Origin: Pseudomonadota bacterium
GTDB taxonomy: Bacteria; Pseudomonadota; Alphaproteobacteria; SP197
DNA length: 64,000 bases
Reading direction: 5' to 3'
Assembly: GCA_039028155.1 (NCBI GenBank)
Contig: JBCCIS010000003.1
Coordinates: 25,904-89,903 of the forward strand
Made by a program: the position numbers and the translations under genes. How positions within the stretch are numbered: position 1 is the first letter of the stretch; every line of letters starts with the position of its first letter. The notes beneath the pieces were generated by a model. It was not told where the DNA came from. It made no database searches and worked only from the letters and a program-made list of their open reading frames with translations. Shown one piece after another: positions 1 to 46,503 of this stretch.

Positions 1-117
1 TCATCACCTTGGGCTGAGGTAACGGCAATCCGCCGTTATCCCATGATCTGACGACCGGCATCGTCCGAACCTAACGTGACTGCCGAAGCTTCCTTGTTCG
101 ACGCGAGATCGAATCCT

Positions 118-2130
118 ATGCGTGATCCCAAGTACGACATTCTCTTCGAGCCCATCCAACTCGGCCCGGTGACCGCCAAGAACCGATTCTACCAGGTGCC
201 CCACTGCTCCGGCATGGGCTGGCACCGGCCCAACACCTTGGCCGGCATGCGCGCCATGAAGGCCGAGGGTGGCTGGGGCGTGGTGTGCACGGAGTATTGT
301 TCGATCAATCCGACATCCGACGACGGCGCTTTTCCCCATGCTCGCCTCTGGGATGCCGACGATCTGCGCAACCAGGCGCTGATGGCCGACGGCGTCCACG
401 AGCATGGCGGTCTCGCCGGTGTCGAGCTGTGGCATGGCGGTAGCCGCGTCGCCAACCTGGATAGCCGCATGGCGCCCCTTGGTGTCGGTCCTGGCCGCGC
501 GCCGTCGCAGTCCGGCGCCAACCATCCGGTCCAGGCGCGCCAGCCGGACAAAACAGACATCAAGAACCTCCGGCGCTGGCAGGGTGAAGCAGCGCGGCGC
601 GCCATCGAGGCCGGGTTCGATGTCGTCTATGTCTACGCGACCCACGGTTATCTGCTCTCGGAGTTTCTGTACCCCGAGACAAACCAGCGCACGGACGAAT
701 ACGGCGGATCGGTTGAGAACCGCGTGCGCATCGTGCGTGAACTGATCGAGGAGACGCTCGAGGCCGTCGCCGGCAAGGCCGCGGTCGCCACCCGCTTCAC
801 GGTCGATCTGGGGGACGAGGAGACCTACGAGTCCTTCTCGCTGATCAAGGACCTGCCCGATCTGTGGGACCTTACCGTCGACGACTACGGCATCGAGATG
901 GGCGTCTCGCGCTTCGTCAAGGAAGCGGCCCTCGAAGACAGTGTCGCGCGCGCCAAGGCGATGACCTCGAAACCGGTCGTCGCGGTCGGTCGCTTCACCA
1001 GCCCCGATACCATGGCGCGGGTCATCAAGGCGGGCTCGCAGGACATGATCGGCGCGGCCAGGCCCTCCATCGCCGATCCGTTTCTGCCCAAGAAGATCGA
1101 GGAAGGGCGCCTGGAAGACATCCGTGAATGCATCGGCTGCAACATCTGCTACGCCCACGACACCTTGGGCATCCCCATCCGCTGCACTCAGAACCCGACC
1201 ATGGGCGAGGAATGGCGCCGCGGCTGGCATCCCGAACACATCGAGCGCAGCGCGTCGCCGGCAAACGCCTTGATCGTCGGCGCCGGTCCGGCCGGCCTTG
1301 AAGCGGCGCGGGTCCTGGGCGAGCGCGGCTTCGATGTCATGCTTGCCGAGGCGACACGCGACCTCGGCGGCCGGGTGACCACCGAAAGCCGCCTGCCCGG
1401 TCTTTCCGAATGGGCGCGGGTGCGCGACTGGCGCACGACCCAACTCGACAAGCTGATGAACGTCGAGGTGTTTCGTGAGAGCCATTTGGCCGCCGATGAT
1501 GTCATGGCCACCGGCGCCGAGTACGTCCTGATCGCAACGGGTTCGCAGTGGCGCACCGACGGCATCGGCAACAACCGCATGGAGCCGTGGGAAAACGGCG
1601 ACGGCGCGCGAATTGTCGGCGTCGACGCGATCCTAGCAGGCGATGAAACGCCCGCCGGACGCGTGGTCATCTACGACGACGACCACTACTACATGGCATC
1701 GGTCGTGGCGCTGGCGCTCGTCCAACGCGGCAACGACGTCACCTTGGTCACGACCGCGCACCGGCCCGTCGCCTGGGGCTCCCATACAGCCGAGATCTCG
1801 CAGTCTAATGCCGCCCTGCGCGACGCCGGCGTGGACGTTGTCACCTATCACCGCCTGGACGCCGTCGCGCCCGGCGAGGCGACCGTTGCCTGCGTCCACA
1901 GCGACAAGACGCAGACGATCAAGGCCGACTGGGTGGTGCCGGTGACGAACCGCGAGCCGGCGGGCGACCTCTACGAGGACCTTTTGGCGCGCGCCAGCAA
2001 TCTCTCCTTACACCGCATCGGCGATTGCGACGCGCCAGGCACCATCGCCGCGGCCGTCTACAGCGGCTACCGCACAGCGCTCGAGCTGGGCGAACCGGCA
2101 AGCGATCCACTCTACAGGCGCCAGCTCTAA
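118..2130 (+). CDS. Trimethylamine/dimethylamine/histamine dehydrogenase-family flavoprotein (OYE-like FMN TIM barrel + 4Fe-4S + C-terminal ADP-binding domain)
   Basis: N-terminus MRDPKYDILFEPIQLGPVTAKNRFYQVPHCSGMG matches the TMADH family, including the Cys of the VPHC motif (6-S-cysteinyl-FMN site). The CIGCNICY...IRCTQNP Fe-S motif is present. The Rossmann GAGPAG motif follows. Start taken at the ATG at 118, in frame with the track ORF whose first codon at 76 is GTG. Confidence 0.8.
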   Translation: MRDPKYDILFEPIQLGPVTAKNRFYQVPHCSGMGWHRPNTLAGMRAMKAEGGWGVVCTEYCSINPTSDDGAFPHARLWDADDLRNQALMADGVHEHGGLAGVELWHGGSRVANLDSRMAPLGVGPGRAPSQSGANHPVQARQPDKTDIKNLRRWQGEAARRAIEAGFDVVYVYATHGYLLSEFLYPETNQRTDEYGGSVENRVRIVRELIEETLEAVAGKAAVATRFTVDLGDEETYESFSLIKDLPDLWDLTVDDYGIEMGVSRFVKEAALEDSVARAKAMTSKPVVAVGRFTSPDTMARVIKAGSQDMIGAARPSIADPFLPKKIEEGRLEDIRECIGCNICYAHDTLGIPIRCTQNPTMGEEWRRGWHPEHIERSASPANALIVGAGPAGLEAARVLGERGFDVMLAEATRDLGGRVTTESRLPGLSEWARVRDWRTTQLDKLMNVEVFRESHLAADDVMATGAEYVLIATGSQWRTDGIGNNRMEPWENGDGARIVGVDAILAGDETPAGRVVIYDDDHYYMASVVALALVQRGNDVTLVTTAHRPVAWGSHTAEISQSNAALRDAGVDVVTYHRLDAVAPGEATVACVHSDKTQTIKADWVVPVTNREPAGDLYEDLLARASNLSLHRIGDCDAPGTIAAAVYSGYRTALELGEPASDPLYRRQL

Positions 2131-14812: not shown

Positions 14813-14937
14813 CCCCCTCACCCTATTTCGGCTAGGGCGCTGGTGCGCCCAAGCCTGCGCATCCCTCTCCCTCAAGGGGCGAGGGAAACAAAAAAATGGA
14901 CCCCCTCTCCCCTTGAGGGAGAGGGCCGGGGTGAGGG
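14813..14937. repeat. Small TIR-bounded palindromic element (MITE/REP-like)
   Basis: Terminal inverted repeats CCCCCTCACCC / GGGGTGAGGGG. Internal hairpins TCCCTC-AAGGGGC-GAGGGA and CCCTCTCC-CCTTGA-GGAGAGGG. An A7 tract. A GC palindrome GCGCGCGGCGGCGCGCC follows. It lies between the GDPD gene and its truncated duplicate. Confidence 0.5.
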
Positions 14938-14964: not shown

Positions 14965-15702
14965 TTACCTTAGCACCGGTAGGATGACGTCAGGCACGTC
15001 CGTGAACACCGCATCGACACCGCGCGCGAAGAGCGACTGGGCTTTCGCCGCGTCGTTGACCGTGTAGCAGACGACCTGACGGCCGGCCGCCTTGACGGCG
15101 CGGATCTGTGCGTCCGTGACCTGACGTTCGGAGAAATGCACGGACATGCAGCCGAGGACGCGCGCACCTATCGACCATTGCCAGCGCGACCGGCGCCATA
15201 TATTCAGCCCGGTCGGCACGTCGGGCCGCGCCTGACGGAACCCCATCAGACAACGCAACACGAAGCTTGAGACCAGTGGCCTGGGACGACCGGGCGGCCA
15301 TGCCTTGTCCAATGTCGCGCCGACGACACGGCCGGTGCGCCAGGCTTCGCCGGGGTTCGTCTTGATCTCGATGTTGGGGCGCATGCCGAGGTCGTGGATG
15401 GCGTCGAGCGCGTCGATCAGGGTCAGGACCCTCTCGCCGGCAAAGCGCGGATCAAACCACGCGCCGGCATCCAGTCGTTTCAGTTCGTCAGCTGTCTTCG
15501 CCGCGACCGGCCCGGTGCCGTCAGTGGTGCGGTCCAACGTGTCGTCGTGCACCAGAACCGGCACGCCGTCCTTGGACAGGCGCACATCGAACTCAACCCA
15601 GTCCAGGCCGAACGCGGCCGCCGCCTTGAACCCGGCGAGTGTATTCTCCGGTGCATGGGCGGCGGCGCCCCGATGCCCGATGACACGCGGCAGGTCGATC
15701 AA
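14965..15702 (-). CDS. Glycerophosphodiester phosphodiesterase (GDPD/UgpQ family)
   Basis: VIGHRGAAAHAPENTLAGF...WVEFDVRLSKDGVPVLVHDDTLDRTTDG is the GDPD signature. Start is ambiguous. A TTG at 15702 lies 8 bp from the upstream gene stop and is preferred. The alternative ATG at 15792 would overlap the upstream gene by 82 bp. Confidence 0.7.
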   Translation of the reverse strand: MIDLPRVIGHRGAAAHAPENTLAGFKAAAAFGLDWVEFDVRLSKDGVPVLVHDDTLDRTTDGTGPVAAKTADELKRLDAGAWFDPRFAGERVLTLIDALDAIHDLGMRPNIEIKTNPGEAWRTGRVVGATLDKAWPPGRPRPLVSSFVLRCLMGFRQARPDVPTGLNIWRRSRWQWSIGARVLGCMSVHFSERQVTDAQIRAVKAAGRQVVCYTVNDAAKAQSLFARGVDAVFTDVPDVILPVLR

Positions 15703-15710
15703 TCGGCGCC

Positions 15711-16874
15711 TCAGGCGATCAGGGCGTCCTGGCCGCGCTTGGCCAGACTGTGGGCGATAATCATGCGTTGGATCTCCGAGGTGCCTTCCCAAATCCGATC
15801 GACGCGCAGTTCCCTATAATAGCGTTCGGCGACATTTTCACGCATGTAGCCGCGCCCGCCGAAAACTTGCACCGCGCGGTCGGCCACCCGGTTGGCCATC
15901 TCCGAGCAATAGAGCTTTGCCATGGAGCACATGGCGTGCTGCACCTTGACGTCCTCGCCATCGTCGATTGCCTGCGCCAGGCGGTAGACCATCAGGCGAC
16001 CGGCCCAAAGTTCCGTCACGCAGTCGGCAAGCGGAAACTGCACCGCCTGGTTCTCAAAGATCGGTTTGCCGAACTGGACACGCTCCTTGGCGAACGCCGT
16101 CGCCTCGTCGATCAGCCGGCTCGCCGCGCCGCAGCAGCGCGCCGCGATGCCCAACCGTTCCTGACGGAACCATTCATAGGTCCAGGTGATGCCGTTGCCT
16201 TCGGGATCGATCAGGTTGTCAGCGGGCACCTTAACGTCGGTGAACTGCATGATCAGGTGGTGCGAGGGATAGGTGTGGGTATAGGCCGGCGTTCTGACGG
16301 TCTCGACGCCGGGCGTATCCTTGTCCAGATAGAACAGCGCATGCGTGCCGTCCTCCAGCTTGGCCTGGAAGATAAGGATGTCGGCCCTGTTGGCGCCGGT
16401 GACATGCCACTTAAGGCCGTTCAGCACATAGCCGTTGCCCTGCTTCTTGGCCGTCGCCTCGATGGCGTCGACGTCGGACCCGGCGCCTTCTTCCGTGATC
16501 GCGTAGCACTCATTCTTCGCGCCGGACAAAAGGTCCTTCACGTAGTGCTCCATCTGATACTCGGTCGCGGTGTGCAGCAGGAACGGCGACATGTCGTGAT
16601 AGCACCAACCCAGCCCGTTCGTGGTGCGCCCGATCTCTTCCTGGATCACCGCAATCTCGATCATCGAGAGTTCGGCGCCGCCGTGTTCTTTCGGGATCGA
16701 CGGCATGAAGAGACCCATTTCCTTGGTCATCTGTTTGTGCTTGGCGCGCACGTCTTCGGGGATCTCGCCGTCGTTCATCTCGGCGTGCACTTCCCAGGGG
16801 ATGAGTTCGCTGTCGACAAAGGGCCGCAGTTTCTCCTGCCAGACGCGGGCGGACTCGGGCAGCGGATAGGACAT
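15711..16874 (-). CDS. Acyl-CoA dehydrogenase
   Basis: ACAD fold with a C-terminal YYRELRVDRIWEGTSEIQRMIIA motif. Start at the internal ATG with a GGAGCG RBS. The track ORF carries an unsupported 54-aa N-terminal extension. Confidence 0.85.
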   Translation of the reverse strand: MSYPLPESARVWQEKLRPFVDSELIPWEVHAEMNDGEIPEDVRAKHKQMTKEMGLFMPSIPKEHGGAELSMIEIAVIQEEIGRTTNGLGWCYHDMSPFLLHTATEYQMEHYVKDLLSGAKNECYAITEEGAGSDVDAIEATAKKQGNGYVLNGLKWHVTGANRADILIFQAKLEDGTHALFYLDKDTPGVETVRTPAYTHTYPSHHLIMQFTDVKVPADNLIDPEGNGITWTYEWFRQERLGIAARCCGAASRLIDEATAFAKERVQFGKPIFENQAVQFPLADCVTELWAGRLMVYRLAQAIDDGEDVKVQHAMCSMAKLYCSEMANRVADRAVQVFGGRGYMRENVAERYYRELRVDRIWEGTSEIQRMIIAHSLAKRGQDALIA

Positions 16875-16947
16875 GGTTCGCGCTCCTTGCGTGACGGTGC
16901 CGGCCGGTTGGCCCGGCCGCACCGGCCGCGTTGTTTTCGAATGGATG

Positions 16948-18852
16948 CTACTCTGCGGCCTCGGCGAAGCCTTTCGCAAGACGCTCATTGGCCTCGGCGA
17001 CGGTGCCGCCGTTCGGCGCCACGTCCAACTCGGCAACCGGAAGGCGTGCGCGCACGTTGTTGTGGAAGGCCGCCAGGCAACGTTCCTTTTCGGAGAAGTA
17101 GCCTGTCGTGTAGGCGCCGGACTCCAGGCCCTGCTGCACGCGCAGGATGAGTTCGTCGTCCTCGTTCTGGACCTGGCTGTTGATTCGGTTGTTCAGCCAG
17201 CGCGCCGCCTTGACCTCGCGCCGTTCGTCGGCCAGGCCGAAGTTGCGCGAGCGCAGCACGCACTTGCCGGGCCCCAGGGGCACGACGTGGAAGAAGCTCA
17301 CCTGATCGGGATAGATGTCGAACGACTGGTTGGGAAACAGGCTGTAATAGCTCCAACTGCGCTGGCGGTCGTCCGGCAGATGATCGAAGCGCGGCAGCAA
17401 CCGCATGTAGAGCCCCTCGGCCCACTGGTTCGACGGCTTGTCGACCATCAACGAATGGGCGCGGCAGGTCGCGCGCTCGTCGGCATCGACCCAGTAGTTG
17501 GCGCCGAACATGCGGTAAAGACCGGGGTGGCCGACATTGATGTGATAACCCTCCAGGTAGTTATCCATCATGTTCTTCCAGTCGACGTCGATGACCTCGC
17601 CGACCCAGCACGAATCAATTGGCTGCAACTCGGCGAAGCGGTACGGCGCCAGCTCATCCTCATAGGCCGCCAGCAGTTCGCCGACGCGCGGGCCGCCGTC
17701 ATCGGAAAGCCGGACGAAGATGAAGCCGTTCCACGTGTCGATCTCAACCGGCTTCAGGCCGAACTTCGCGACATCCAGATCGGGGAACGTTTCCTTGGCG
17801 GGCATTGCCTTCAGGCTGCCGTCATAGTTATAGGACCAGCCGTGATAGGGGCAGACGATGTTAAAACGGTGGTTGCCTTGGCGGCCGGGGCACAGACGCG
17901 CGGCGCGATGGCGGCACACGTTGTGAAATGCCCGGAACGTGCCCTGCTTGTCGCGGATCACGACGACACGCCGGTTGGCGTAATCCAGCGTCAGGTAGTC
18001 GCCGGGTTTCTCGAACTCGCTTGTGTGACCGACGATCTGCCAGGACGCGTCGATCAGATCGCTCATCTCCAGTTCGAAGAACTCGTTGTTGTTGTATGTC
18101 CAGGCAGGCAGCGTCTTGGTCGCGCCGGCCGGTGCGCTCGCTGATGTGCCGGGTGACGACGTGCCGGTCGGCGGCGATACCGGCTCCGCCGGACGCGCGG
18201 CATTCAGGTCCGTCACCTTGTCGTCGGGCTCGCCGCCAAAATCGTCGGGGAAGAACGCCGCCAACACCGCGATGATCGAACGGCGCACCTCGCTGCGGTC
18301 ATAGGTCTCGCCATAGAACAACAGGTCGTACTGGAACCCCTGCTGCATGGCGCTCAGCGTGCGCGCGATGCGCGCGGCGTCCAGATGATCGAAACCGCGC
18401 GCGGCGATCAGCTCGGCGATCGGGCGGCGCAACTCGTCCTGAAAGCGGTCGTCCATGGCGCCACAAAGATCGCTATAGGTCTCGCGGCCCTTGGCCTCGG
18501 CCAGGAACGCGACCCAGGCCGCGGTACGATCAAGTGTCCAGTTGCGCGGGTGAAGGTCGGCGTCGACCAGCGCCAGGACACGCGCGGCCGGGTCGTCGCC
18601 AGCCGCTGCCAGACCGTCCTGCCAGATCGCCACGTAGCCATCGGCCAGATAGCGCATGGTCTCCAGGAACAACGCGTCCTTGCTGTCGAAGTAGAAGCCA
18701 ACGATGCCACGCGACAATCCGGATTCGTCGGAAACATCGCTCAACGTGGTGCGCGCATAGCCGTGTTTGCTGATGGCGCGAATGGTGGCGTCGATAAGCT
18801 GCTGGCGGCGCTCGTCCTTGCGGTCGCGGGTGGTGTCGTTCATGGCAGTCAT
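16948..18852 (-). CDS. Fusion protein: TetR/BetI-like HTH regulator (N-terminal ~215 aa) fused to a Rieske non-heme iron oxygenase alpha subunit (GbcA/Stc2/CntA-like)
   Basis: N-terminus RRQQLIDATIRAISKHGYARTTLSDVSDESGLSRGIVGFYF is a TetR-type HTH. A Pro/Ser/Thr linker follows. Then YNNNEFFELE, the Rieske CRHR...CPYHGW motif and a catalytic domain (NYLEGYHINVGHPGLY). The reading frame is continuous with no internal stop. Confidence 0.75.
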   Translation of the reverse strand: MTAMNDTTRDRKDERRQQLIDATIRAISKHGYARTTLSDVSDESGLSRGIVGFYFDSKDALFLETMRYLADGYVAIWQDGLAAAGDDPAARVLALVDADLHPRNWTLDRTAAWVAFLAEAKGRETYSDLCGAMDDRFQDELRRPIAELIAARGFDHLDAARIARTLSAMQQGFQYDLLFYGETYDRSEVRRSIIAVLAAFFPDDFGGEPDDKVTDLNAARPAEPVSPPTGTSSPGTSASAPAGATKTLPAWTYNNNEFFELEMSDLIDASWQIVGHTSEFEKPGDYLTLDYANRRVVVIRDKQGTFRAFHNVCRHRAARLCPGRQGNHRFNIVCPYHGWSYNYDGSLKAMPAKETFPDLDVAKFGLKPVEIDTWNGFIFVRLSDDGGPRVGELLAAYEDELAPYRFAELQPIDSCWVGEVIDVDWKNMMDNYLEGYHINVGHPGLYRMFGANYWVDADERATCRAHSLMVDKPSNQWAEGLYMRLLPRFDHLPDDRQRSWSYYSLFPNQSFDIYPDQVSFFHVVPLGPGKCVLRSRNFGLADERREVKAARWLNNRINSQVQNEDDELILRVQQGLESGAYTTGYFSEKERCLAAFHNNVRARLPVAELDVAPNGGTVAEANERLAKGFAEAAE

Positions 18853-19063
18853 CTCAAGAATTGGCAGTTTTTAAGGTGATTGGAGACTACCACACTACTT
18901 GGCTGAACGTCCAGCCAAATCTTCACCTACCTGGCAGGAACCGGGCGTGACACGCGACTCGGCAAGATCCTTTACATGTCGTCTGCGGGGTTCAGACTGC
19001 GTGTATGCGGTCGCCACCGCCGCCGGTGACGGCCGCCTAAAACCCAACAAGGAGGCTGCCGTG

Positions 19064-20188
19064 ATGAGGATGGAACTTTCCGAGTTTAAAGACCGCCTGG
19101 CATCGGGTTCGCTGACCCGCCGCGACATCAGCAAGGTGCTGGCTTCGGTCGGTCTGGTGACCGTCTCGATGCCGGTGATCAAGAACGCCGCCCATGCGGC
19201 GCCGACGATCCAGGTCTTCACCTGGTCCGGCTATGACGTGCCGGAGATGCACGGCACCTACACCGAGGCCTATGGTGCCTCGCCGGAGTTCTTGTTCTAC
19301 GCTGACAACGACGAGGCGATTGAAAAGGTCCGTGCCGGTTATGCGCCGACGCTAGTACAGCCGACCAGCTACATGATCGGCCGCTGGCGAGACGCCGGCC
19401 TGCTCGTGCCGATCGATACCTCGCGGCTCTCCTACTATCCCGAGGTCTTTCAGCAGTTGAAGGATATCGGCGCCTTAAGTCACGACGGTCAGACCTATGG
19501 CGTACCGTTGGCGTGGGGCAACAGTTCGGTCCTGTTCCGCAAGGACCTGGCGCCGGAATACGTCGACAACCCGACCTGGGAGATCCTATGGGATCCGAAG
19601 TATGCCGGCCGTCTTGCCCAGCGTGACTCGATGGATGCCGGCGTTCTCGAAGCCGCGCTGATTTTGGGCATCGAGGATCCCTACAACATGTCGGACGCTG
19701 ATCTCGAACGTGTTCGCGAGAAGCTGGTCGAGCAGCGCCCGCTGCTGCGCTACTACTGGAACAGCCAGGCCGACATTGAACAAGCCATCGCATCCGGCGA
19801 AATCGTCGCCGCCTATGCGTGGAACGACGCTTATGCGGCGCTGAAGCGCGAGGGCCATGACGTCGGCTATATGATTCCGAAAGAAGGTATTCTGACCTGG
19901 GTCGACACGACATGCATGATCAAGGACGGACCCGGCGACGAGGCCGAAGCCTATGACTTCATGAACGCGCTGATCTCGCCGGAAACCGGTGTCTTCCTGA
20001 TCGAGGAGTACGGCTACGGATCGGTCAACGAGAAGTCCTATCCGCTGGCCAACCAGGAACTGCTGGTCGAACTCGGCATCGAGGATCCCGACAAGGTTCT
20101 GGCGCTGGGCGAGTTCTTCGACGAGTGGAACCCGCAAGTCCGCGAAAAGGCCAACATCATGTTCGAAGAGGTGAAGGCCGGCTTCTAA
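19064..20188 (+). CDS. PotD/PotF-family periplasmic substrate-binding protein with Tat-type signal
   Basis: Start ATG after AAGGAGG. Signal region SLTRRDISKVLASVGLVTV is a twin-arginine-like motif. The polyamine/opine-type SBP fold follows. Confidence 0.7.
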   Translation: MRMELSEFKDRLASGSLTRRDISKVLASVGLVTVSMPVIKNAAHAAPTIQVFTWSGYDVPEMHGTYTEAYGASPEFLFYADNDEAIEKVRAGYAPTLVQPTSYMIGRWRDAGLLVPIDTSRLSYYPEVFQQLKDIGALSHDGQTYGVPLAWGNSSVLFRKDLAPEYVDNPTWEILWDPKYAGRLAQRDSMDAGVLEAALILGIEDPYNMSDADLERVREKLVEQRPLLRYYWNSQADIEQAIASGEIVAAYAWNDAYAALKREGHDVGYMIPKEGILTWVDTTCMIKDGPGDEAEAYDFMNALISPETGVFLIEEYGYGSVNEKSYPLANQELLVELGIEDPDKVLALGEFFDEWNPQVREKANIMFEEVKAGF

Positions 20189-20268
20189 CCGGTCCTCGCC
20201 TTTTACATTCTAACTGCCACGAAGACCCGGCGATCGAACCTATTGCCGGGTCCTGAGTGCGATTGTCG

Positions 20269-21540
20269 ATGCTAAGTACCGATCCCTATTGGTGGGAGGC
20301 GGCGGCGCCACAAACTTCGGATCAAACGCCGCCGCCTACCGCCGAGATTGCCATCGTCGGTTCCGGCTTTGCCGGGCTGTCGGCAGCGTTGACCTTGGCA
20401 CGCGGCGGCCGAAGCGTCGTTGTGTTGGACGCCGGCGCCATCGGCGGCGGCGCCAGTTCACGCAATGTTGGTTTTTTGGGCCACGAATTGCGCACGTCGC
20501 TGTCGCGCTTGACGGCACTGCACGGCCGATCGGAGGCGATCGAGATCGCGCGCGAGGGGATCGCCGCCCAGCGTTTTGCCATCCAGCGTATCAACGATGA
20601 AGCCATCGCGTGCGACCTCTGCGAACCCGGTCGTCTGGTTCCGGCTTGGCGCCCGTCCCATTACGGCGCCCTGGCCATCGATGCCGAGACCCAGTACCGC
20701 GCCTTCGGCATCGAGTTCGAGATGCTGGATGCCGATGCGCTGCGGCGCGAACTCGGCACAGACGCCTATTGCGGCGCCAAGCTGGTGCGCCGCTCCTTTG
20801 CGCTGCATCCCGGCAAGTTCGTCGCTGGCCTTGCCGAGCGCGCGGCGGATGCAGGGGCTGTTCTGGTCGACACCTGTCCGGTCGAGGCGATGGTCCCCGA
20901 CCACGATGGCGTGAAGCTCCACACCGCGCGCGGTCCCCTTCTTGCGCGTGAGGTTCTGGTCGCCACCAATGGCTACACGGGCCGACTGACCCCGGACCTT
21001 CGCCGCCGGCTGCTGCCCGTCGGCAGTTATGTTGCGGCGACGGAAGAACTCAGCCCCGAACGGATGGCGCGGATCTTGCCGACCGGCCGGGTCGGCGTCG
21101 ACACGCGGCATGTCTTTTCCGCTTTTCGCCCGTCACCGGATGGCAGCCGGCTGATCTTCGGCGGCCGCGCCTCGTTGCACAATCTGGACGCCCGCAGGGC
21201 CGCGACGATCCTGCGTCGCCAGATGGTGCGTCTGTTCCCCGACCTTGCCGATGTCGCGATAACCCACTCATGGAGCGGTTATGTCGCCTTCACGTTCGAC
21301 CGGCTGCCCCATTTGGGCCGCAAGGGTCGCGTTCGACACGTCATGGGATTCAACGGCGCCGGTGTCGGCATGGCGACCTATCTCGGTCACCGGGCGGCTC
21401 TATCGATCCTTGGCGGCAACGAGCCGGAAAGCATCTTCGAACGCCACGATTTTCCTACCCGCCGCTTCTACTCCGGCAACACGTGGTTTTTGCCGCTCGC
21501 CTTCGCCTATTACAAACTCAAGGATCGTTTCGCCCACTGA
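20269..21540 (+). CDS. FAD-dependent oxidoreductase, PuuB/OrdL (gamma-glutamylputrescine oxidase-like) family
   Basis: PYWWE N-terminal motif. Dinucleotide-binding IAIVGSGFAGLSAAL. C-terminal HSWSGYVAFTFDRLPHLG. Paralogous to the gene at 60876. Confidence 0.75.
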   Translation: MLSTDPYWWEAAAPQTSDQTPPPTAEIAIVGSGFAGLSAALTLARGGRSVVVLDAGAIGGGASSRNVGFLGHELRTSLSRLTALHGRSEAIEIAREGIAAQRFAIQRINDEAIACDLCEPGRLVPAWRPSHYGALAIDAETQYRAFGIEFEMLDADALRRELGTDAYCGAKLVRRSFALHPGKFVAGLAERAADAGAVLVDTCPVEAMVPDHDGVKLHTARGPLLAREVLVATNGYTGRLTPDLRRRLLPVGSYVAATEELSPERMARILPTGRVGVDTRHVFSAFRPSPDGSRLIFGGRASLHNLDARRAATILRRQMVRLFPDLADVAITHSWSGYVAFTFDRLPHLGRKGRVRHVMGFNGAGVGMATYLGHRAALSILGGNEPESIFERHDFPTRRFYSGNTWFLPLAFAYYKLKDRFAH

Positions 21541-21564: not shown

Positions 21565-22389
21565 ATGTTCTCATTCGAAGGCAAATGCGCCGTCGTGACC
21601 GGTGCGGGCCGCGGCATCGGCCGACAGATCGCGCTCAATCTCGCCGAGCTTGGTGCTGATCTGGTCCTTGCCTCACGCACCGAAGGCGAAATCCAGACGG
21701 TCGCCGGCGAGATCGAAGCGATGGGGCGGCGCGCCTGGCCGATCATCGCTGACATGGGCGACCTTGATCAGGCGCTTGGTCTTGTCGACCAGGCCATCGA
21801 CGCCATGGGCGCCATCGATGTCTGGATTAACAACGCCGGTGGCGGGAGCAGCGTCAAGGGCGGTGTCGGTCCGATCGAGGAGGCGACCGTCGAAGGATTC
21901 GACGCGATCTACCAGCTCAATGTCCGCGTTCCATTCTTCTGCGCGCGCAAGACGGCTGACCACATGGCAACGCGCGGTGGCGGCGCCGTGTTGAACATCG
22001 TCTCGATTGACGGTGTCTTCGCCGCGCCCGGTGAAGGCGTCTATGGATCGGCGAAGGCCGCTTTGATCAGCCTGACCGAAACCATGGCAATCGAATACGG
22101 CCGACACAACGTGCGCTTCAACGCGATCGCACCGGCGCTGATCGACACCAAGCTGGTCGAGCGCCACCTGAGATCCGACGAGGATCGCCAGACCCGTGCC
22201 TCGTTCTACCCGCTCAACCGGGTCGGCAAACCGCAAGACATCGCCGCTGCGGCGATCTACTTCTGCTCCGACGAAGCCGGTTGGACATCCGGCCAGACCC
22301 TGGTCGTTGCCGGCGGCAATCAGGCGACCAGCGATCTCTTCTTGTGGGTTCGCAAGCACAACCCGGTGCCGGAGAGCAGGAGGATGTAG
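21565..22389 (+). CDS. Short-chain dehydrogenase/reductase (SDR)
   Basis: TGAGRGIG Rossmann motif, NNAG, and the YGSAKAA catalytic Tyr-x3-Lys. Confidence 0.85.
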   Translation: MFSFEGKCAVVTGAGRGIGRQIALNLAELGADLVLASRTEGEIQTVAGEIEAMGRRAWPIIADMGDLDQALGLVDQAIDAMGAIDVWINNAGGGSSVKGGVGPIEEATVEGFDAIYQLNVRVPFFCARKTADHMATRGGGAVLNIVSIDGVFAAPGEGVYGSAKAALISLTETMAIEYGRHNVRFNAIAPALIDTKLVERHLRSDEDRQTRASFYPLNRVGKPQDIAAAAIYFCSDEAGWTSGQTLVVAGGNQATSDLFLWVRKHNPVPESRRM

Positions 22390-22530
22390 CCGGATCCCAT
22401 CGCGGCCGATGATTTTGGATGCGGCGAGGGCCGTGAACCTGCTATGGGGCGCGGACAGCATCATCTGTCGCCTCACTAGACAGCATCGCGCCCCGGGCGC
22501 CCGAACCACACCTTGCCAGGGATCACGCCC

Positions 22531-24402
22531 ATGACCGGACATCGTCTCGACCCCCTGTTGACGCCGCGCTCGATCGCGCTGGTCGGCGCCTCCGACCGGG
22601 CCGGCACGGTCGGCCACGGCATGGTGGCGGGCCTCAAGGACGCCGGGTTCGCCGGACCGCTTTACGCGGTTAACCCCAAGTATGACGAGGTTCAGGGCGT
22701 CCCCTGTTTTGCGTCGCTCACCGACCTGCCGGAACCTGTCGACCTCGCGGTGCTCGGCGTCAACTCGATCCGCATCGAACAGCAGATGGCCGACGCCATC
22801 GCGCTTGGCGCGCGCGCCTGTGCCATCTTCGACAGCTGTTATCTGGATGACGAAACCGATCGCGGCCTCCTGAAACGACTGCGCGCCATGGCGGCCGAGG
22901 CCGACATGCCAGTCTGCGGCGGCAACGGCATGGGTTACCTCAACATGGATGCCTGGCTGCCGGTCACGATCTATAACGCGGTGCCCAAGATGAAACGCGG
23001 CGGCAATGTCGCCTTCATCACCCATTCCGGCACCGTGTTTTCGGAGATCGGACTCAACGATCCCCGTTACGCCTGCAACCTCATCGTCTCGTGCGGGCAA
23101 GAGATCAATGGCACCATGGCCGATTACATCGACTATGCGCTTGCCCTGCCCTCGACCCGTGTCATCGCGCTCTTCATGGAAACCGCGCGCGATCCCGGCG
23201 CCATGACGTCCGCGCTCGACAAGGCGCGCAAGCAGGGCGTACCCATCGTTGCGATGAAAGTCGGGCGTACAGACCTGGCATCCGCCTACGCGGTCGTTCA
23301 CTCCGGCGCCATCACCGGCGACGACAACGTCTATCAGGCGCTGTTCGACCGCTATGACGTCATGCGCGTCGACACCATGGACGACATGGCCAACCTCTTG
23401 ACCCTGCTCTCGAACCCGCGCGATGTCGCCGATGGCGGTCTTTCCTGTGTGCTCGATTCCGGCGGCGAACGCGAGATGCTGGTTGATCTGGCAGACAGCT
23501 CAGGCACGCCGTTGACCGCGTTGTCGCCGGCGACACAAGAGGCGTTGCGCCCGCGCCTGAACCATGCGCTGGAGCCGGTCAACCCGCTGGACGCCTGGGG
23601 CACCGCCGACAACTACGAGGAAGATTTCGAGGAGTATCTCGCGCTGATGGCGGGCGACGACGGTACCGGCATGGTCGTCTTCTGCGGTGACATGACGTGG
23701 AGCCCGAACGTCAAGGAGGGCTATCCCAAGGCCCTGGTCGAGGCGACCAAGCGCACCGACAAACCGGTCGGCGTTCTCATCAACATGCCGACCTCCGGCT
23801 TCATGGAGGTCGGTCTGGAGATGGCCGAGGCTGGCCTCGTCGTTTTGTCGGGCACAAAATCGGGCCTGACCGCCATCCGCCACGCGATGACGTGGCGCGA
23901 TCGCGACATGTTGTCCCCTGACATTGGTGTTGTGTCGGCCGACCCGGCCGCCATTGACCGTTGGCGCGAACGCTTCGCCGCAGGCACACCGTCCAACGAC
24001 GACGCGCTCGCCCTCGTGGCGGACTTCGGTATCGCGTCTTCTGCCGATGCCGCGTCAGCCGGCGGGCATCCGCCGCTGGTCTTCTTGATGATCCGCGATG
24101 ACCAGTTCGGTCCCGTCGTCACGCTCGCCTTCGATGGCGCCCTGGGCGACGCCGACAACGACCGCCGTTATGTCATGGCGCCCATCGGTCCGGATGCGGC
24201 GGGGCGGCTGATCGACAGCGTGCGCCTGCGTTCACTTCTGGGCGAGGACGACGCTGACGTGGGCGCTTTGGCCCAGGCTCTCAGCCGTTTTTCCGTTCTC
24301 GTCGCGGCGCTCGGCGAGAGCTTGGACCGCCTCGAGGCCGGGAATGTCATTGCTTCTCCCAATGGCTCGACGGTTGGCCGCGCCAGCCTTTCGCTTCGAT
24401 GA
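22531..24402 (+). CDS. Acyl-CoA synthetase (NDP-forming), single-chain CoA-binding + ATP-grasp
   Basis: N-terminal CoA-binding domain (SIALVGASDRAGTVGH...LYAVNPKY) and a succinyl-CoA-synthetase-like flavodoxin domain. About 620 aa. Confidence 0.7.
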   Translation: MTGHRLDPLLTPRSIALVGASDRAGTVGHGMVAGLKDAGFAGPLYAVNPKYDEVQGVPCFASLTDLPEPVDLAVLGVNSIRIEQQMADAIALGARACAIFDSCYLDDETDRGLLKRLRAMAAEADMPVCGGNGMGYLNMDAWLPVTIYNAVPKMKRGGNVAFITHSGTVFSEIGLNDPRYACNLIVSCGQEINGTMADYIDYALALPSTRVIALFMETARDPGAMTSALDKARKQGVPIVAMKVGRTDLASAYAVVHSGAITGDDNVYQALFDRYDVMRVDTMDDMANLLTLLSNPRDVADGGLSCVLDSGGEREMLVDLADSSGTPLTALSPATQEALRPRLNHALEPVNPLDAWGTADNYEEDFEEYLALMAGDDGTGMVVFCGDMTWSPNVKEGYPKALVEATKRTDKPVGVLINMPTSGFMEVGLEMAEAGLVVLSGTKSGLTAIRHAMTWRDRDMLSPDIGVVSADPAAIDRWRERFAAGTPSNDDALALVADFGIASSADAASAGGHPPLVFLMIRDDQFGPVVTLAFDGALGDADNDRRYVMAPIGPDAAGRLIDSVRLRSLLGEDDADVGALAQALSRFSVLVAALGESLDRLEAGNVIASPNGSTVGRASLSLR

Positions 24403-28844: not shown

Positions 28845-29597
28845 CTAGATAACCACCGGGAACAGCAGGCAGAGGTAACAGGAAAGCGCCAGGGCGGGCC
28901 CGAAGGGAAAGACGCGGCCACGCCCGGCACCGCGCCAGAGAAGCGCCAGGACGATGCCGGCCAGGCCGCCCAACACGAGAAACGCCGGGATCAGCGGCAA
29001 GCCGATCCATAAGCCCGCCACCGCCATCAGCTTGACGTCGCCGAGGCCCAGGCCCTCGCGAGCGCGGAACCGGCGGTAGACCCAGCGCAACGCCATACCA
29101 GCGCCGCCCAGGACAAGTGCCGCGGCAAGGCCCATGGCGCCCGCGCCAATTGGATCGCCCAGCGCCACCCACCAACCCGGCGCCAGAACGACGGCCGCGA
29201 TCTGCAGGGGATCCGGCAGGTAGCCGTGCTCCAGGTCGATCACCGCCATCATGATCAGGATAAGACCGAGCGCCGCCAGCATGGGGAACGCGGGTACGAG
29301 ACCATAATCGAGCCAAGCGGCCAGAAAGGCGATCGCCGTCGTGATCTCGATGGCGATATAGCGCAGGCCGATCGCCGCGCCGCAGTGGCGGCAGTGACCG
29401 CGCGACGACAACCAGGACAAAACCGGAACAAGATCCCGGACCGAAAGCGGCGCCCCACAGGACGAACATCGTGAACGCTGTTCACGAAAGCTCTCGCCGC
29501 GCGGCAGCCGATGGGTCAACATGGTTGCGAAACTGCCAAAAACTAGCCCTAAAAGGGTAATCAATACCCCTTCCGAGAGTGCCCCGAGCACGGTCAT
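28845..29597 (-). CDS. pilD: Type IV prepilin leader peptidase (A24 family, PilD/GspO-like)
   Basis: N-terminal Zn-binding CSSCG...CRHCG tetracysteine domain, then the A24 peptidase membrane domain. Start at the internal ATG (MTVLGALSEGVL). Confidence 0.8.
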   Translation of the reverse strand: MTVLGALSEGVLITLLGLVFGSFATMLTHRLPRGESFREQRSRCSSCGAPLSVRDLVPVLSWLSSRGHCRHCGAAIGLRYIAIEITTAIAFLAAWLDYGLVPAFPMLAALGLILIMMAVIDLEHGYLPDPLQIAAVVLAPGWWVALGDPIGAGAMGLAAALVLGGAGMALRWVYRRFRAREGLGLGDVKLMAVAGLWIGLPLIPAFLVLGGLAGIVLALLWRGAGRGRVFPFGPALALSCYLCLLFPVVI

Positions 29598-29724
29598 CGC
29601 TCGGCCGTATGGCTGGCCGGCGTGGCGAAAATGCATCGCCCGACAACAGAAAGAATCAAGAGTCCCAACGGTTTGGTTCCAAATCCTTAAGTTCTAATGT
29701 ATATGGAATCGGTAACGGATTGTA

Positions 29725-31476
29725 TTGGGGTTCGGGGTGGTGTCGTTCAGAACGGATACCTACACCAAGTCACTGCCGCGCGCACGGTTGGCGCTGGCGG
29801 CGATCGCGGTTGCGTCGCTTCTGATCGCCTCGTGCGACAAACCGCTGGGCGACTTTCACGATCCCGAAGCCGGCCTCACCAAGGCCGATTACGAAGACAT
29901 TATTGGCACCTCGGCGACCCCGCCGGACGCCAGCGGCGCGTTGGCGCCGGAAGCGCCGCCGATCCCGGATCTGATGCCGGCCCTGGCCGTACCGGTGCCA
30001 GCGACGGGTCCGGAAAGCCGGCTCGTCTCGATCTCCGTCGTCGACACGGTGCCGATCCGCGACGTGCTGATCGAGCTGGCCCGCGCCGCCGAGGTCGACC
30101 TGGAACTCGATCCCGCGATCGAAGGCGGCATCATCTTCAGTGCCCAGAACCGACCGTTCATCGAGGTCATCGACCGCATCTCGGCCATGGCCAACCTGCG
30201 CTACGAATACAAGGGCGGTATCCTGAGGATCGAGATCGACCGGCCCTATCACGCGACCTACAAGGTCGAGCATCTGGCCGCCGCGCGCAGCGCAACGAGT
30301 TCGGTCGATATCTTCACCGACGTCTTCTCCTCGGTCGGCGACAACGCGATCAGCAACGGCTCTGCCGCCCGCATCGAGCAGGTCACAGAGAACGACTTCT
30401 ATGGCGAACTGGCGACCAACGTGCGCCAGATCCTGACCAATTCCTCGCCAGCCGAAGAAATCGAGGAAATCCAGCTTGCTTCGGTCCAACCGACCCTGGA
30501 CGGCGAGGGCGAGGAAGTGACCGACGCGGTCGCCGAGCCGGTCGAGGACTTCTCCATCAATCGCCAAAGCGGGCTGCTCTCCGTCTTCGCGACCCAGCGC
30601 CAGCACCGCCTGGTGCAGGACTACCTGCGCGAGCTGATCATCCGCTCGTCGTCCCAGATCGTGGTCGAGGCCAAGGTGTTGGAAGTCCAGCTGAGCGATC
30701 AGTTCCGCAGCGGCGTCGACTGGAGCGTGGTGGTCGGCATGCTGGGCGGCCAGGCGGGTTTCCTGTTGAACACCGGCCTTGCCAACATCCCCAACAATTC
30801 GCCGGATCTGGCTCAACTCAGCTTTGTTGGCGGCGATGTCGACGCGGTCGTCAACCTGATCAGCGAGTTCGGCACCACGCGCACGCTCGCCAATCCGCGC
30901 CTATCGATCACCAACAACGAGCCGGCGGTTCTGAAGGTCGCCCAGAACCAGGTCTATTTCACCCTGGAGTTCGAAACCAACACGACCCAGGGCGTCGTGA
31001 CCGAGACGGTCGAAAGCACGGTCAACACGGTGCCGATCGGTCTGGTCATGCTGGTGCAGCCGTCGATCGATCTGGACACCGACCGCGTGACGCTGAGTTT
31101 GCGCCCGACACTGTCCAACATTGTCGAATTCGTTGACGATCCCGCGGTCTCGATCGAATCCAACAACACGGTTGTCTCGCAGGTCCCGGTGGTCGAGGTA
31201 CGCGAGTTCGACTCCATCGTCACGGCGCGATCGGGCGAGGTCATCATCCTGGGCGGCCTGATGCAGGAGACCGCGCAGAACAACGAGGCCGGCCTGCCCG
31301 GCTTCCAGGACATCCCGTGGGTCGGCAACGCCTTCAAGTCGAATGACGACGATCGCGAGGTCCGCGAACTCGTCATCTTCCTGCGCGCGACCATCGTGCC
31401 CCAGCCGGTGCCGGCGCCTGCGGATATCGATCTCTACAACACCTTCGCCATCGACCCGCGACCGCTCACATTCTAG
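29725..31476 (+). CDS. Type II/IV secretion system secretin (GspD/PilQ/MshL-like), lipoprotein
   Basis: C-terminal secretin domain (VTARSGEVIILGGLMQET...LPGFQDIPWVGNAFKS...LVIFLRATIV) and N-terminal N0/N1-like domains. Lipobox LLIASC near the N-terminus. First codon TTG; GTG alternatives at 29737 and 29740. Confidence 0.8.
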   Translation: MGFGVVSFRTDTYTKSLPRARLALAAIAVASLLIASCDKPLGDFHDPEAGLTKADYEDIIGTSATPPDASGALAPEAPPIPDLMPALAVPVPATGPESRLVSISVVDTVPIRDVLIELARAAEVDLELDPAIEGGIIFSAQNRPFIEVIDRISAMANLRYEYKGGILRIEIDRPYHATYKVEHLAAARSATSSVDIFTDVFSSVGDNAISNGSAARIEQVTENDFYGELATNVRQILTNSSPAEEIEEIQLASVQPTLDGEGEEVTDAVAEPVEDFSINRQSGLLSVFATQRQHRLVQDYLRELIIRSSSQIVVEAKVLEVQLSDQFRSGVDWSVVVGMLGGQAGFLLNTGLANIPNNSPDLAQLSFVGGDVDAVVNLISEFGTTRTLANPRLSITNNEPAVLKVAQNQVYFTLEFETNTTQGVVTETVESTVNTVPIGLVMLVQPSIDLDTDRVTLSLRPTLSNIVEFVDDPAVSIESNNTVVSQVPVVEVREFDSIVTARSGEVIILGGLMQETAQNNEAGLPGFQDIPWVGNAFKSNDDDREVRELVIFLRATIVPQPVPAPADIDLYNTFAIDPRPLTF

Positions 31477-46210: not shown

Positions 46211-46398
46211 TCCTCACCTCTAGCGCCTGATGGATGCTGTCGGCCGACCCCTCGGCACAAGACAACAGAACGTCACCGGTCTCCCGTGGCGTTTTCAGGC
46301 GTCCCCAACTGCTTTCTTCCCGCGTATTTTAGTACACAAGCTGTTAGATTCATATTCAGATAATGCTCAACCCGTCCTATAAGTCGGATTAATGTGAA

Positions 46399-46480
46399 CT
46401 GTGTTTATGACGCACAATCAAGCCGGTCTGTGGCGACCGTCACAACTATATCCGTCGTTCTCTTGATTTGATAAACACAG
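46399..46480. promoter_or_regulatory. 10-bp inverted repeat CTGTGTTTAT ... ATAAACACAG (62-bp spacing) in the AT-rich divergent promoter region between the mshE-like operon and pilin gene 2
   Basis: Seen directly in the 290-bp intergenic region, which is markedly AT-richer than the flanks. Confidence 0.35.
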
Positions 46481-46503
46481 TGGATTAGCGGCACTGGCCA
46501 AAT

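Follow-up and report, generated by a model that had tools for sequence, protein, structure and literature searches.

Trigger enzymes that carry their own DNA-binding domain include PutA, in which an RHH domain is joined to proline dehydrogenase/P5C dehydrogenase, as well as BirA and NadR. In these proteins, a sequence-specific DNA-binding domain and an enzyme of the pathway under its control reside in one polypeptide chain; the TetR–Rieske oxygenase fusion described here has a comparable domain architecture and a predicted autoregulatory layout. However, the fusion employs another DNA-binding fold (TetR) and another enzyme class (Rieske oxygenase), and its TetR module carries its own effector pocket. 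To our knowledge, TetR-family regulators are viewed as two-domain proteins that stand alone, and the regulation of Rieske oxygenases as acting in trans. In literature searches that left most subscription papers outside their reach, no publication on TetR/BetI–Rieske fusions was found, and nothing relevant was retrieved on TetR–enzyme fusions and TetR trigger enzymes or on a betaine pathway combining a Rieske oxygenase, an acyl-CoA dehydrogenase (ACAD) and a CoA ligase. The architecture is apparently unstudied.

The closest described relative of the regulatory half is BetI, the TetR-family repressor through which the bet regulon responds to choline (b0313 in Escherichia coli). E. coli BetI contains the same Pfam pair, TetR_N plus TetR_C_6, and in its regulon, too, a single palindromic box lies in a region of divergent promoters. 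In E. coli, BetI binds the betI–betT spacer (PMC5934670). For the oxygenase half, the best sequence and fold matches are the group V oxygenases CntA, Stc2 and GbcA. CntA uses a bridging glutamate (E205) and an aromatic pi-cation residue (Y203), and its activity requires the reductase CntB (PMC7948474). Furthermore, a cysteine pair beside the CntA iron site (C206/C209) has been highlighted for group V (PMC10952381). Like the members of this group, the fusion is found without a beta subunit gene and in a gene context of quaternary-amine or N-methyl catabolism, whereas its N-terminal DNA-binding module sets it apart from CntA, Stc2 and GbcA.

The fusion gene lies on the minus strand at 16948..18852 of the window, i.e. 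the whole 64-kb stretch of DNA that was analysed. It forms one ORF of 634 aa with an ATG start and zero internal stops. A second ATG at 18843 would yield a protein of 631 aa; this start, three codons later, is the one called by NCBI for the identical protein (P0001), and the same later Met is the start of an orthologue with 81% identity. Four Pfam domains are recognized, all above their gathering cut-offs. The helix-turn-helix (HTH) DNA-binding domain TetR_N (PF00440; aa 19–64, 18661..18798) scores 47.2 bits against a cut-off of 24, and the BetI-type effector and dimerisation domain TetR_C_6 (aa 88–200, 18253..18591) scores 46.3 bits against 27. They are followed by the Rieske [2Fe-2S] domain (PF00355; aa 270–356, 17785..18045; 76 bits) and by the mononuclear non-heme iron catalytic domain Ring_hydroxyl_A (aa 421–604, 17041..17592; 133 bits). 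Between the two halves, at about aa 205–245 (18118..18240), lies a linker rich in Ala, Pro, Thr and Ser. An AF2 model of the protein (mean pLDDT 90.1, pTM 0.64, domain pLDDT above 90) contains two confident domains with no fixed interdomain packing. Nine long helices over aa 5–200 (pLDDT above 90) form the all-helical, two-domain TetR fold, and the linker is disordered, with a pLDDT below 50 for aa 208–242. The initial annotation, which had read this ORF as an uninterrupted chain of a TetR HTH with its ligand-binding core, a Pro/Ser/Thr-rich linker and a complete Rieske alpha subunit, is thus borne out in each of these parts.

The same architecture was found in 69 of the best 120 homologues, at 34–100% identity. 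These fusions make up roughly 35 clusters at 50% identity and derive from NCBI, JGI, ENA and Logan assemblies, including contigs of 2.9–5.5 Mb. Close orthologues (56–81% identity) are all fused and only a few distant relatives are split, which does away with the idea that orthologues might always be split. A search with the TetR half only returned standalone TetRs alone and missed the known fusions, and is therefore no gauge of the ratio of fused to unfused genes. A homologue of 1342 aa (P0200), considered as a larger natural fusion, was set aside because it also has ABC-transporter domains and is probably chimeric. The TetR and oxygenase halves have co-diverged (Mantel r 0.78), and comparison with the 81% orthologue gives dN/dS values of 0.048 for the HTH, 0.11 for TetR_C and 0.17 for the Rieske and catalytic domains. 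No part of the protein is under stronger constraint than the HTH, which is 96% identical in this orthologue, and the linker is fast-evolving, with a dN of 0.46 and an in-frame indel of 13 codons. Across the 34 fusions with a measurable linker, its length ranges from 19 to 42 aa and its sequence is variable, while the reading frame is always kept. Taken together, these observations show that the fusion is genuine and conserved in many bacteria.

Downstream of the fusion stop codon, at a distance of 74 bp and preceded by an AAGGAG ribosome-binding site, lies an ACAD gene (15711..16874, minus strand) that is probably co-transcribed with the fusion. An ACAD gene also lies directly 3' of the fusion in the loci L001, L002 and L003, in the latter two after a Rieske paralogue. 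Next is a gene for a glycerophosphodiester phosphodiesterase (GDPD; 14965..15792, minus strand), whose translation probably begins downstream of the TTG given in the ORF list and which occupies the same position in L001. A terminator-like hairpin with a T-run (14903..14925, minus strand) marks the end of the fusion–ACAD–GDPD unit. Divergently, on the plus strand, the cluster encodes a PotF/PotD-like periplasmic binding protein (SBP_bac_8; 19064..20188) with a twin-arginine (Tat-like) signal, a DAO-family FAD amine/amino-acid oxidase (20257..21540), a short-chain dehydrogenase (SDR; 21565..22389) and an ADP-forming acyl-CoA synthetase (CoA_binding_2, Succ_CoA_lig and ATP-grasp_5; 22513..24402), the last of which is found next to fusion genes more often than any other neighbour. 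The cluster contains no other regulator gene. Other fused loci, namely L085 and L086, deviate from this layout: the fusion is preceded by another gene in its operon, or the locus has an additional, separate TetR gene.

The amine-catabolism setting that had been proposed for this neighbourhood calls for one refinement: an uncharacterised cluster for amines or betaines, with CoA activation, is a more apt description than a polyamine (Puu) pathway. None of seven genes from the cluster and two more distal ORFs reached the cut-off of an NCBIfam equivalog, the only model passed being that of a generic SDR subfamily. The enzyme at 76–2130 that had been listed as belonging to the TMADH family is an OYE/FadH-type Fe-S flavoenzyme located 15 kb from the fusion. 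Among the Pfam-annotated ORFs of the window, none resembles betA or betB (choline dehydrogenase and betaine-aldehyde dehydrogenase).

The divergent promoter region contains a candidate BetI-type operator. This 20-bp palindrome, TTGGCTGGACGTTCAGCCAA (18899..18918, halves TTGGCTGGAC and GTTCAGCCAA, half-sites TTGGCTG/CAGCCAA), lies 47–66 bp ahead of the ATG of the fusion and, on its other side, is separated by about 146 bp from the start of the divergent binding protein gene. Its core, TGGACGTTCA, is identical over 10 bp to the core of a box in the E. coli betI–betT spacer, the full boxes reading TTGGCTGGACGTTCAGCCAA in the window and TTGATTGGACGTTCAATATA in E. coli. The E. coli box was taken from a direct motif scan of the bet locus, where it is the top match within 8 kb. 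The palindrome is unique within the window and identical in the 81% orthologue, although the flanks have diverged. Fusions with 35–47% identity have related palindromes upstream, at −45 to −75, and at 8 of 12 loci outside the motif-building set the best upstream match is among the top two of the locus, with the proviso that such rank statistics are inflated in GC-rich genomes because the motif is AT-rich. A strict scan around the box gave no match to a canonical sigma-70 promoter, and a comparison of eight sequences revealed no clear pattern of co-variation between recognition helix and operator half-site.

The TetR part itself shares about 24% identity with E. coli BetI. Residues common to both are R15, G31, T36, Y54, F55, K58, W113, F116 and D185; G31, T36, F55 and K58 of the HTH are invariant among the 69 fusions. 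In TetR_C_6, W113 and Y126 are invariant as well, while F116, E119 and R123 are nearly so. However, E119, R123 and Y126 of the pocket are specific to the clade and differ from the residues of BetI, and the scores for the BetI equivalogs remain below cut-off (TIGR03384, 97.9 versus 201.3 bits; NF001978, 90.7 versus 118 bits). In addition, the TetR part is covalently joined to an enzyme, unlike BetI.

The oxygenase half retains the residues expected of a complete alpha subunit. The Rieske motif C313-x-H315...C334-x-x-H337 is conserved in 100% of the 69 fusions, and the catalytic domain contains the motif Y432-x-E434-G-x-H437-x4-H442 together with D565, with H437 conserved in 97%, H442 in 99% and D565 in 100% of them. 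The bridging E434 is present in all 69 fused and 49 standalone homologues. As in CntA, the motif has the form E-x2-H-x4-H, the bridging residue is Glu and not Asp, and an aromatic residue precedes it by two positions. This residue, Y432, falls on the pi-cation position of CntA-Y203, a trait of subgroup Va, in a register derived from the motif and not from structural superposition; the position is Tyr or Phe in 40 fusions and Asp in 27. A Foldseek search against the PDB returned Stc2 and CntA as the best matches (probability 1.00, TMt 0.73–0.85), at 22–25% identity to the solved structures. The assignment to a glycine-betaine/carnitine/stachydrine demethylase type made in the initial annotation is not established by these comparisons, since Stc2, a demethylase, and CntA, a C–N cleaving enzyme, score equally, and the GbcA equivalog reaches 174 bits against a cut-off of 670 with a coverage of aa 246–479 only. 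The Cys-x-x-Cys pair of group V is also missing; at these positions, no Cys occurs in any of the 69 fused or 49 standalone homologues, the window protein having G435 and I438, and the fusions Gly (60 of 69) and Ile, Val, Phe, Leu or Met, respectively.

In contrast to CntA with its CntB, no cognate reductase gene adjoins the fusion, in line with what had been noted before: none was found among the Pfam-annotated ORFs or by motif scan. The same result was obtained for the entire 64 kb (Pfam on long ORFs, with two at 54.9–60.8 kb covered by motif scan only). When every ORF of 70 aa or more was scanned for motifs, no plant-type [2Fe-2S]/FNR ORF turned up in a genuine reading frame, and no reductase gene was seen in eight comparator loci. 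A second Rieske oxygenase is likewise missing from the cluster of the window, from that of the 81% orthologue and, by motif scan, from the 64 kb.

True split pairs of TetR and Rieske genes exist in Dongia sedimenti and in Acidobacteriota, and in some relatives the two genes are divergent. The pair of D. sedimenti R-7 comprises the same two families in the same order and orientation as the fusion, and a related palindrome is located at −65 of its TetR gene. Its TetR protein terminates at an ...FPxxF motif, as do the TetR parts of the fusions, and the oxygenase starts shortly 5' of an LPAWTY motif that is common to the fusions. Unlike the single-ORF fusion, the pair consists of two ORFs that are separated by 89 bp and read in different frames, with identities to the window protein of 30% for the TetR and 41% for the oxygenase. 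As genuine split versions exist, a regulator gene and a neighbouring oxygenase gene that would have been under its control are the most likely origin of the fusion.

The conserved cofactor and HTH residues of the 69 fusions and the conserved BetI-like box upstream favour the regulator-enzyme option of the initial annotation. We propose, with a probability of roughly 0.6, that the fusion is a bifunctional autorepressor-oxygenase, or trigger enzyme, encoded in a cluster for amine/betaine catabolism that is so far uncharacterised. In this model, the N-terminal BetI-type module would most likely dimerise and bind the single BetI-like palindrome at 18899–18918. It would thereby repress its own operon (fusion, ACAD and GDPD) as well as the opposite one, which encodes the binding protein, the FAD oxidase, the SDR and the ADP-forming CoA ligase. 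A small-molecule effector in the TetR_C_6 pocket, probably a quaternary or N-methyl amine bearing a carboxylate, would lift the repression. The conserved ligands suggest that the C-terminal module is a cofactor-competent Rieske alpha subunit of the beta-less lineage acting on quaternary ammonium compounds. The oxygenase modules would most likely assemble into head-to-tail alpha3 trimers, receive electrons from a reductase encoded elsewhere and attack an N-methyl or C–N bond of the pathway substrate. With the two modules joined through a disordered stretch of about 40 residues, repressor dosage would likely rise in step with enzyme dosage, and the sensor would be kept beside the activity that destroys the inducer. 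Such dosage coupling and proximity may give threshold-like induction and rapid shut-off. Counting against the model are the lack of a reductase gene in the 64 kb and in the eight comparator loci, the deviating layouts of L085 and L086 and the missing match to a sigma-70 promoter. A TetR dimer and an alpha3 trimer on one chain also constitute a symmetry mismatch, for which we know of no solution.

A stronger version of this proposal, in which catalysis and DNA binding would be mechanistically coupled and the fusion would be the first TetR-family trigger enzyme of this kind, is tentative and rather unlikely. In that case, the oxygenase might consume or generate the effector beside the TetR pocket or relay the redox state of the Rieske cluster or the iron. 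Alternatively, the mismatch between dimer and trimer might force a higher-order assembly, e.g. a D3 hexamer with three operator-binding dimers, the formation of which would depend on substrate or cofactor loading. Such coupling is not required, because the TetR module has an effector pocket of its own, and the switch of PutA, in which flavin reduction leads to membrane binding, has no evident counterpart in the fusion.

Apart from coupling, the Rieske half may serve as an extra input to the TetR module, responding to substrate, redox state, iron or O2, with catalysis being carried out by paralogues or other enzymes. Standalone Rieske paralogues adjoin the fusion in about half of the fused loci, directly beside it in L002/L003, L084, L011, L019 and L029, and a mainly sensory role of the fused copy is therefore conceivable at those loci. 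The longer Rieske branches of fused than of standalone copies, the Asp that replaces the aromatic residue at the CntA-Y203 position in 27 of the 69 fusions and the lack of a reductase nearby point in the same direction. As a general explanation, a purely sensory Rieske half is nevertheless improbable: the four Rieske ligands, the 2-His-1-Asp triad and the bridging Glu are intact in 97–100% of the fusions, dN/dS in the catalytic domain (0.17) is not above that of the Rieske domain, and the clusters of the window and the 81% orthologue would be left without any other Rieske oxygenase. Furthermore, a second sensor is not obviously needed, since the TetR_C_6 effector domain is itself conserved.

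Equally, it is doubtful that the fusion is a device for co-expression, in which the linker would be cleaved or the modules fully independent and the only meaning of the joint chain would be synthesis at a 1:1 ratio. The retention of the fusion down to 34% identity with co-diverging halves speaks against this, and inspection of the fusion linkers revealed no conserved cleavage motif, even though the linker is long, disordered, of low complexity and unconserved, the model shows no fixed packing between the domains and the split relatives apparently work as two proteins. An internal translation start yielding free oxygenase was considered and rejected, as no suitable start codon or ribosome-binding site was found in the linker.

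That the TetR half is vestigial, i.e. has lost DNA binding and remains as an appendage for substrate binding, solubility or oligomerisation, would fit its score of 98 bits against the BetI equivalog cut-off of 201 and the separate TetR gene at the operon promoter of L086; the strong constraint on the HTH, its invariant hallmark residues shared with E. coli BetI and the BetI-type palindrome kept at a fixed upstream distance make this highly improbable. Finally, the sequencing fusion envisaged in the initial annotation, i.e. a TetR gene and a Rieske oxygenase gene merged by a lost stop codon or frameshift in the metagenome-assembled genome from which the window originates, is refuted by the recurrence of the fusion in dozens of independent assemblies, some on megabase-sized contigs, by purifying selection in both halves and by the frame preserved through the linker indel and all linker lengths, the real split arrangements being those of distant relatives and the one seemingly split close relative (P0121, locus L089) being rejected as such because its fusion, ACAD, DAO and GDPD genes are all frameshifted on the contig.

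As a conserved natural fusion, the autorepressor-oxygenase would add a new class to the few DNA-binding trigger enzymes, and it poses the structural question of how an obligate dimer and an obligate trimer share one chain. With an operator predicted, split relatives known and the split form present in an isolate (D. sedimenti R-7), the different readings can be tested directly. If catalysis and DNA binding were coupled, gene expression would track enzymatic flux and not substrate concentration alone. The fusion is also a potential ready-made, self-contained sensor-enzyme part for the sensing of quaternary amines or betaines. Its cluster points to an uncharacterised CoA-dependent catabolism of N-methylated or quaternary amines in soil and aquatic Proteobacteria, a route that may bear on osmolyte and methylamine cycling.

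The fusion is encoded on the minus strand at 16948-18852 by one uninterrupted ORF of 634 aa, counted from the first ATG. The single reading frame and the TetR/Rieske layout proposed in the initial annotation are confirmed by the ORF call and by four Pfam domains above their gathering scores: TetR_N (aa 19-64), the BetI-type TetR_C_6 (aa 88-200), Rieske (aa 270-356) and Ring_hydroxyl_A (aa 421-604). The junction DNA of the window contains neither the stop codon nor the frame change that had been considered there, and encodes a Pro/Ser/Thr/Ala-rich linker, close to the Pro/Ser/Thr-rich one first described. The identical NCBI protein (P0001, 631 aa, 'MAG: SRPBCC family protein [Pseudomonadota bacterium]') starts three codons later, as does the 81% identical orthologue (locus L001). 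The same fusion was sought in relatives and is present: 69 proteins of at least 580 aa occur among the best 120 matches in a search of 5.8 billion proteins. The best-supported reading, with a probability of roughly 0.6, is that of a bifunctional autorepressor-oxygenase.

Across the 69 fusions, the four ligands of the Rieske cluster (C313, H315, C334 and H337) never vary, and those of the catalytic iron (H437, H442 and D565) are kept in 97-100%. The neighbours of the oxygenase half in sequence and fold searches are the Stc2 stachydrine demethylase, the CntA carnitine monooxygenase and 3N0Q, beta-less enzymes acting on quaternary amines. CntA is a head-to-tail α3 trimer, in which a bridging Glu205 is required for electrons to cross the subunit interface and Tyr203 makes a π-cation contact with the quaternary ammonium group (PMC7948474). 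Read from the motif, the window protein has Y432-x-E434-G-x-H437-x4-H442 in the same register. The bridging Glu is found in all 118 fused and standalone homologues, and the position of Tyr203 is aromatic in 40 of the 69 fusions and Asp in 27. However, none of the 118 homologues has the Cys-x-x-Cys pair known from group V (PMC10952381), the two positions holding Gly and Ile/Val/Phe instead, and the window protein scores 174 with the GbcA equivalog model, whose cut-off is 670. By these sequence criteria the oxygenase half therefore belongs to a separate, so far uncharacterised clade with ties to group V, whose chemistry may be demethylation or C-N bond cleavage. Neither the annotated ORFs of the 64-kb window nor a motif scan of it revealed an FNR-type or ferredoxin-type partner, which agrees with the earlier remark that no reductase gene is adjacent; none was found in eight annotated comparator loci either. 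That the oxygenase half acts only as a sensor is unlikely; with well-conserved ligand sets on one side and the TetR hallmarks G31, T36, F55 and K58 showing no variation in the 69 fusions on the other, both halves look functional.

The linker could be delimited in 34 fusions. It measures 19-42 aa there, with much Ala/Pro/Thr/Glu/Gly and no conserved sequence. In the comparison with L001 it shows a four-fold higher dN and an in-frame indel of 13 codons. The AlphaFold2 model, built with 30 family members as input, has a mean pLDDT of 90.1 and a pTM of 0.64; both modules exceed a pLDDT of 90 and residues 208-242 fall below 50. This combination suggests two rigid bodies joined by a flexible tether. 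A pure co-expression device, or a protein whose linker is cleaved, is a doubtful alternative; the pairwise distances computed for one half correlate with those for the other over the 69 fusions (Mantel r 0.78, with none of 2000 permutations as high), which fits inheritance of the two halves as one unit.

The N-terminal module is called BetI-like on account of its sequence family, its HTH residues and a predicted operator. However, it is no BetI orthologue: its equivalog score is 98 bits against a cut-off of 201, and its identity to E. coli BetI is ~24%. In the effector domain, E119, R123 and Y126 (window ~18475-18498) are kept in fused and split members, whereas E. coli BetI has S, Q and L. 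From these clade-specific residues we infer a ligand other than choline, possibly carboxylate-bearing; the three form a candidate signature of a zwitterionic (betaine-like) effector. A vestigial TetR half is very improbable, dN/dS (NG86) against L001 being 0.048 for the HTH and 0.11 for TetR_C, compared with 0.17 for both the Rieske and the catalytic domain.

The predicted operator lies in the 211 bp that separate the fusion start from the divergent gene of a binding protein, which probably starts at Met 19064. It is a 20-bp palindrome, TTGGCTGGAC|GTTCAGCCAA, at 18899-18918, 47-66 bp upstream of the fusion ATG. With two mismatches allowed it is matched nowhere else in the window, which does not decide the matter by itself, as 16 of 100 shuffles gave at least one match. 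The palindrome is identical in L001, where the flanks have diverged, and related palindromes stand at equal distance in fusions of 35-47% identity: TTGAATGGACATTCAATCAA (L002/L003), TTGAATGGACATTCAATCAT (L084) and TTGAATGTCTATTCAT (L087). A matrix built from these sites was tested on 12 loci outside the training set. In eight, including the split Dongia locus (-65) and Kiloniellaceae (-65), the best match in the 200 bp preceding the TetR or fusion gene came first or second among all matches of the locus; these ranks are somewhat inflated, because an AT-rich motif is favoured in intergenic DNA, which is AT-richer. The fusion of L086 comes last in a long operon, and there the top match of the locus is at that operon's promoter. 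BetI binds the betI-betT spacer of E. coli (PMC5934670). Most tellingly for a BetI-type box, the K-12 spacer contains TTGATTGGACGTTCAATATA, at 18.2 bits the clear top of the 8-kb bet locus (next unrelated site, 6.4 bits), with a 10-bp core, TGGACGTTCA, identical in the window palindrome. The strongest BetI-like box in the locus of Dongia sedimenti R-7 (L030), ATAACTGAACGTTCATTCAT at 15508-15527 (24.5 bits), is found 5.5 kb beyond the TetR gene on its downstream side and may point to another promoter of the regulon.

Nearly all 69 long homologues share an identical four-domain architecture at identities from 100% down to 34%, and derive from NCBI, JGI, ENA and Logan assemblies, including contigs of 2.9, 4.4 and 5.5 Mb. 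When 1.84 billion cluster representatives were searched exhaustively with HMMER, the top 150 included ~35 fused ones at the 50% level. Among species-representative genomes, fused genes were seen in Kiloniellaceae, Arenicellales, Steroidobacteraceae and one betaproteobacterium, and source names among the best 120 matches further include Alphaproteobacteria, Gammaproteobacteria, Kiloniellales and Myxococcota. The sequencing fusion allowed for in the initial annotation is contradicted by this recurrence across assemblies, by the dN/dS values and by the in-frame linker indel, and an assembly or sequencing product can practically be dismissed. P0121 (237 aa, 83% identical) was rejected as a split close copy. 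Its 9-kb contig (L089, ENA ERZ21788738 ctg42216l), syntenic to window 14-24.5 kb at ~83-85% nucleotide identity, has frame shifts throughout, with mid-gene frame changes in the fusion, acyl-CoA dehydrogenase, DAO oxidase and glycerophosphodiester phosphodiesterase genes alike. It is an indel-rich assembly, so that the split is the artefact and the 'standalone TetR' pollutes protein databases. P0200 (1342 aa; TetR_N, TetR_C_6, Rieske and the start of Ring_hydroxyl_A, then ABC_tran and ABC_membrane) is probably a chimeric contig or gene-calling artefact, not a larger natural fusion. A search with the TetR half only returned standalone TetRs exclusively, missing known fusions, and is unusable for a fused/unfused ratio.

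Relatives show every intermediate arrangement between separate and fused genes. A BetI-like TetR gene is divergent from the Rieske gene in L008 and L033, and a separate, co-directional TetR ORF lies immediately upstream in the Acidobacteriota loci L056 and L061; in Dongia sedimenti R-7 a 216-aa TetR is followed co-directionally, after 89 bp and in a different frame, by a 403-aa oxygenase. The split TetR ends at an FPxxF motif and the split oxygenase starts ~20 residues ahead of LPAWTY. Since the same motifs border the linker in fusions, the linker represents what was once the intergenic spacer together with the start of the oxygenase. In a neighbour-joining tree, fused forms spread across deep branches with standalone clades interspersed.

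The fusion is followed, after a 74-bp spacer, by the acyl-CoA dehydrogenase gene and then the phosphodiesterase gene, beyond which lies a terminator-like hairpin (14903-14925). The spacer holds an imperfect, GC-rich hairpin that lacks a T-run (16895-16927, minus strand), which might stabilise mRNA or attenuate transcription, and 3' of it the dehydrogenase's AAGGAG RBS (16882-16887). The divergent genes encode a PotF/PotD-like binding protein (19064-20188, plus strand; twin-arginine-like signal SLTRRDISKVLASVG), a DAO-family oxidase, an SDR and an ADP-forming acyl-CoA synthetase. The binding protein is an orphan, as no ABC permease or ATPase gene adjoins it. L001 is fully syntenic. Recurrent in other fused loci are ADP-forming CoA ligase, PotD/F-type binding proteins, FolD/PurU, aminotransferases, paired amine oxidases with a GCV_T aminomethyltransferase, and acyl-CoA dehydrogenase or enoyl-CoA hydratase. 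In about half of the fused loci, the fusion has one or two standalone Rieske paralogues as immediate neighbours (L002/L003 11950-13185, L084 9887-11113, L011, L019, L029). These are ~400 aa long, share ~50% identity with the window oxygenase half and form their own clade; they could carry out successive oxidations, assemble into hetero-trimers or share out sensing and catalysis between them. No cluster gene reaches an NCBIfam equivalog cut-off, and the cluster is read as an uncharacterised catabolic route in which a carboxylate-bearing N-methyl or quaternary amine would be processed as its CoA thioester and C1 units would be handed to tetrahydrofolate. The cluster contains no other regulator gene, the closest being an AraC-family gene at 33-34 kb. 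The 'TMADH-family' enzyme named earlier does exist, as an OYE/FadH-type Fe-S flavoenzyme (76-2130, plus strand) ~15 kb away from the fusion; at a distance of ~42 kb there is a second DAO-family oxidase (60876-62180, plus strand). Type II secretion/type IV pilus-like genes (prepilin peptidase, secretin, T2SSF, T2SSE/MshEN ATPase, N-methyl pilin) occupy 28845-31476 and 42936-47259; L001 is likewise flanked by prepilin peptidase and secretin.

Both domain families are known already, annotation pipelines give such proteins both names (among the best 120 matches), and DNA-binding trigger enzymes are an established concept (PutA, BirA, NadR); the fusion is no new category of system. In full-text literature searching, neither a TetR/BetI-Rieske fusion nor the present cluster was found described. 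It is nevertheless real, conserved, mechanistically intriguing and immediately testable. As an autorepressor-oxygenase, its TetR module would occupy the single BetI-type box and repress both divergent operons until the effector binds, and its oxygenase module, as an α3 trimer served by an unlinked reductase, would oxidise the pathway substrate. A dimeric TetR module and a trimeric oxygenase would then share one chain, a mismatch that this reading has to accommodate. With both modules on one chain, the sensor would sit beside the activity that removes the inducer and repressor dosage would scale with enzyme dosage. A sharper induction threshold and a faster shut-off would be expected from this one-chain design.
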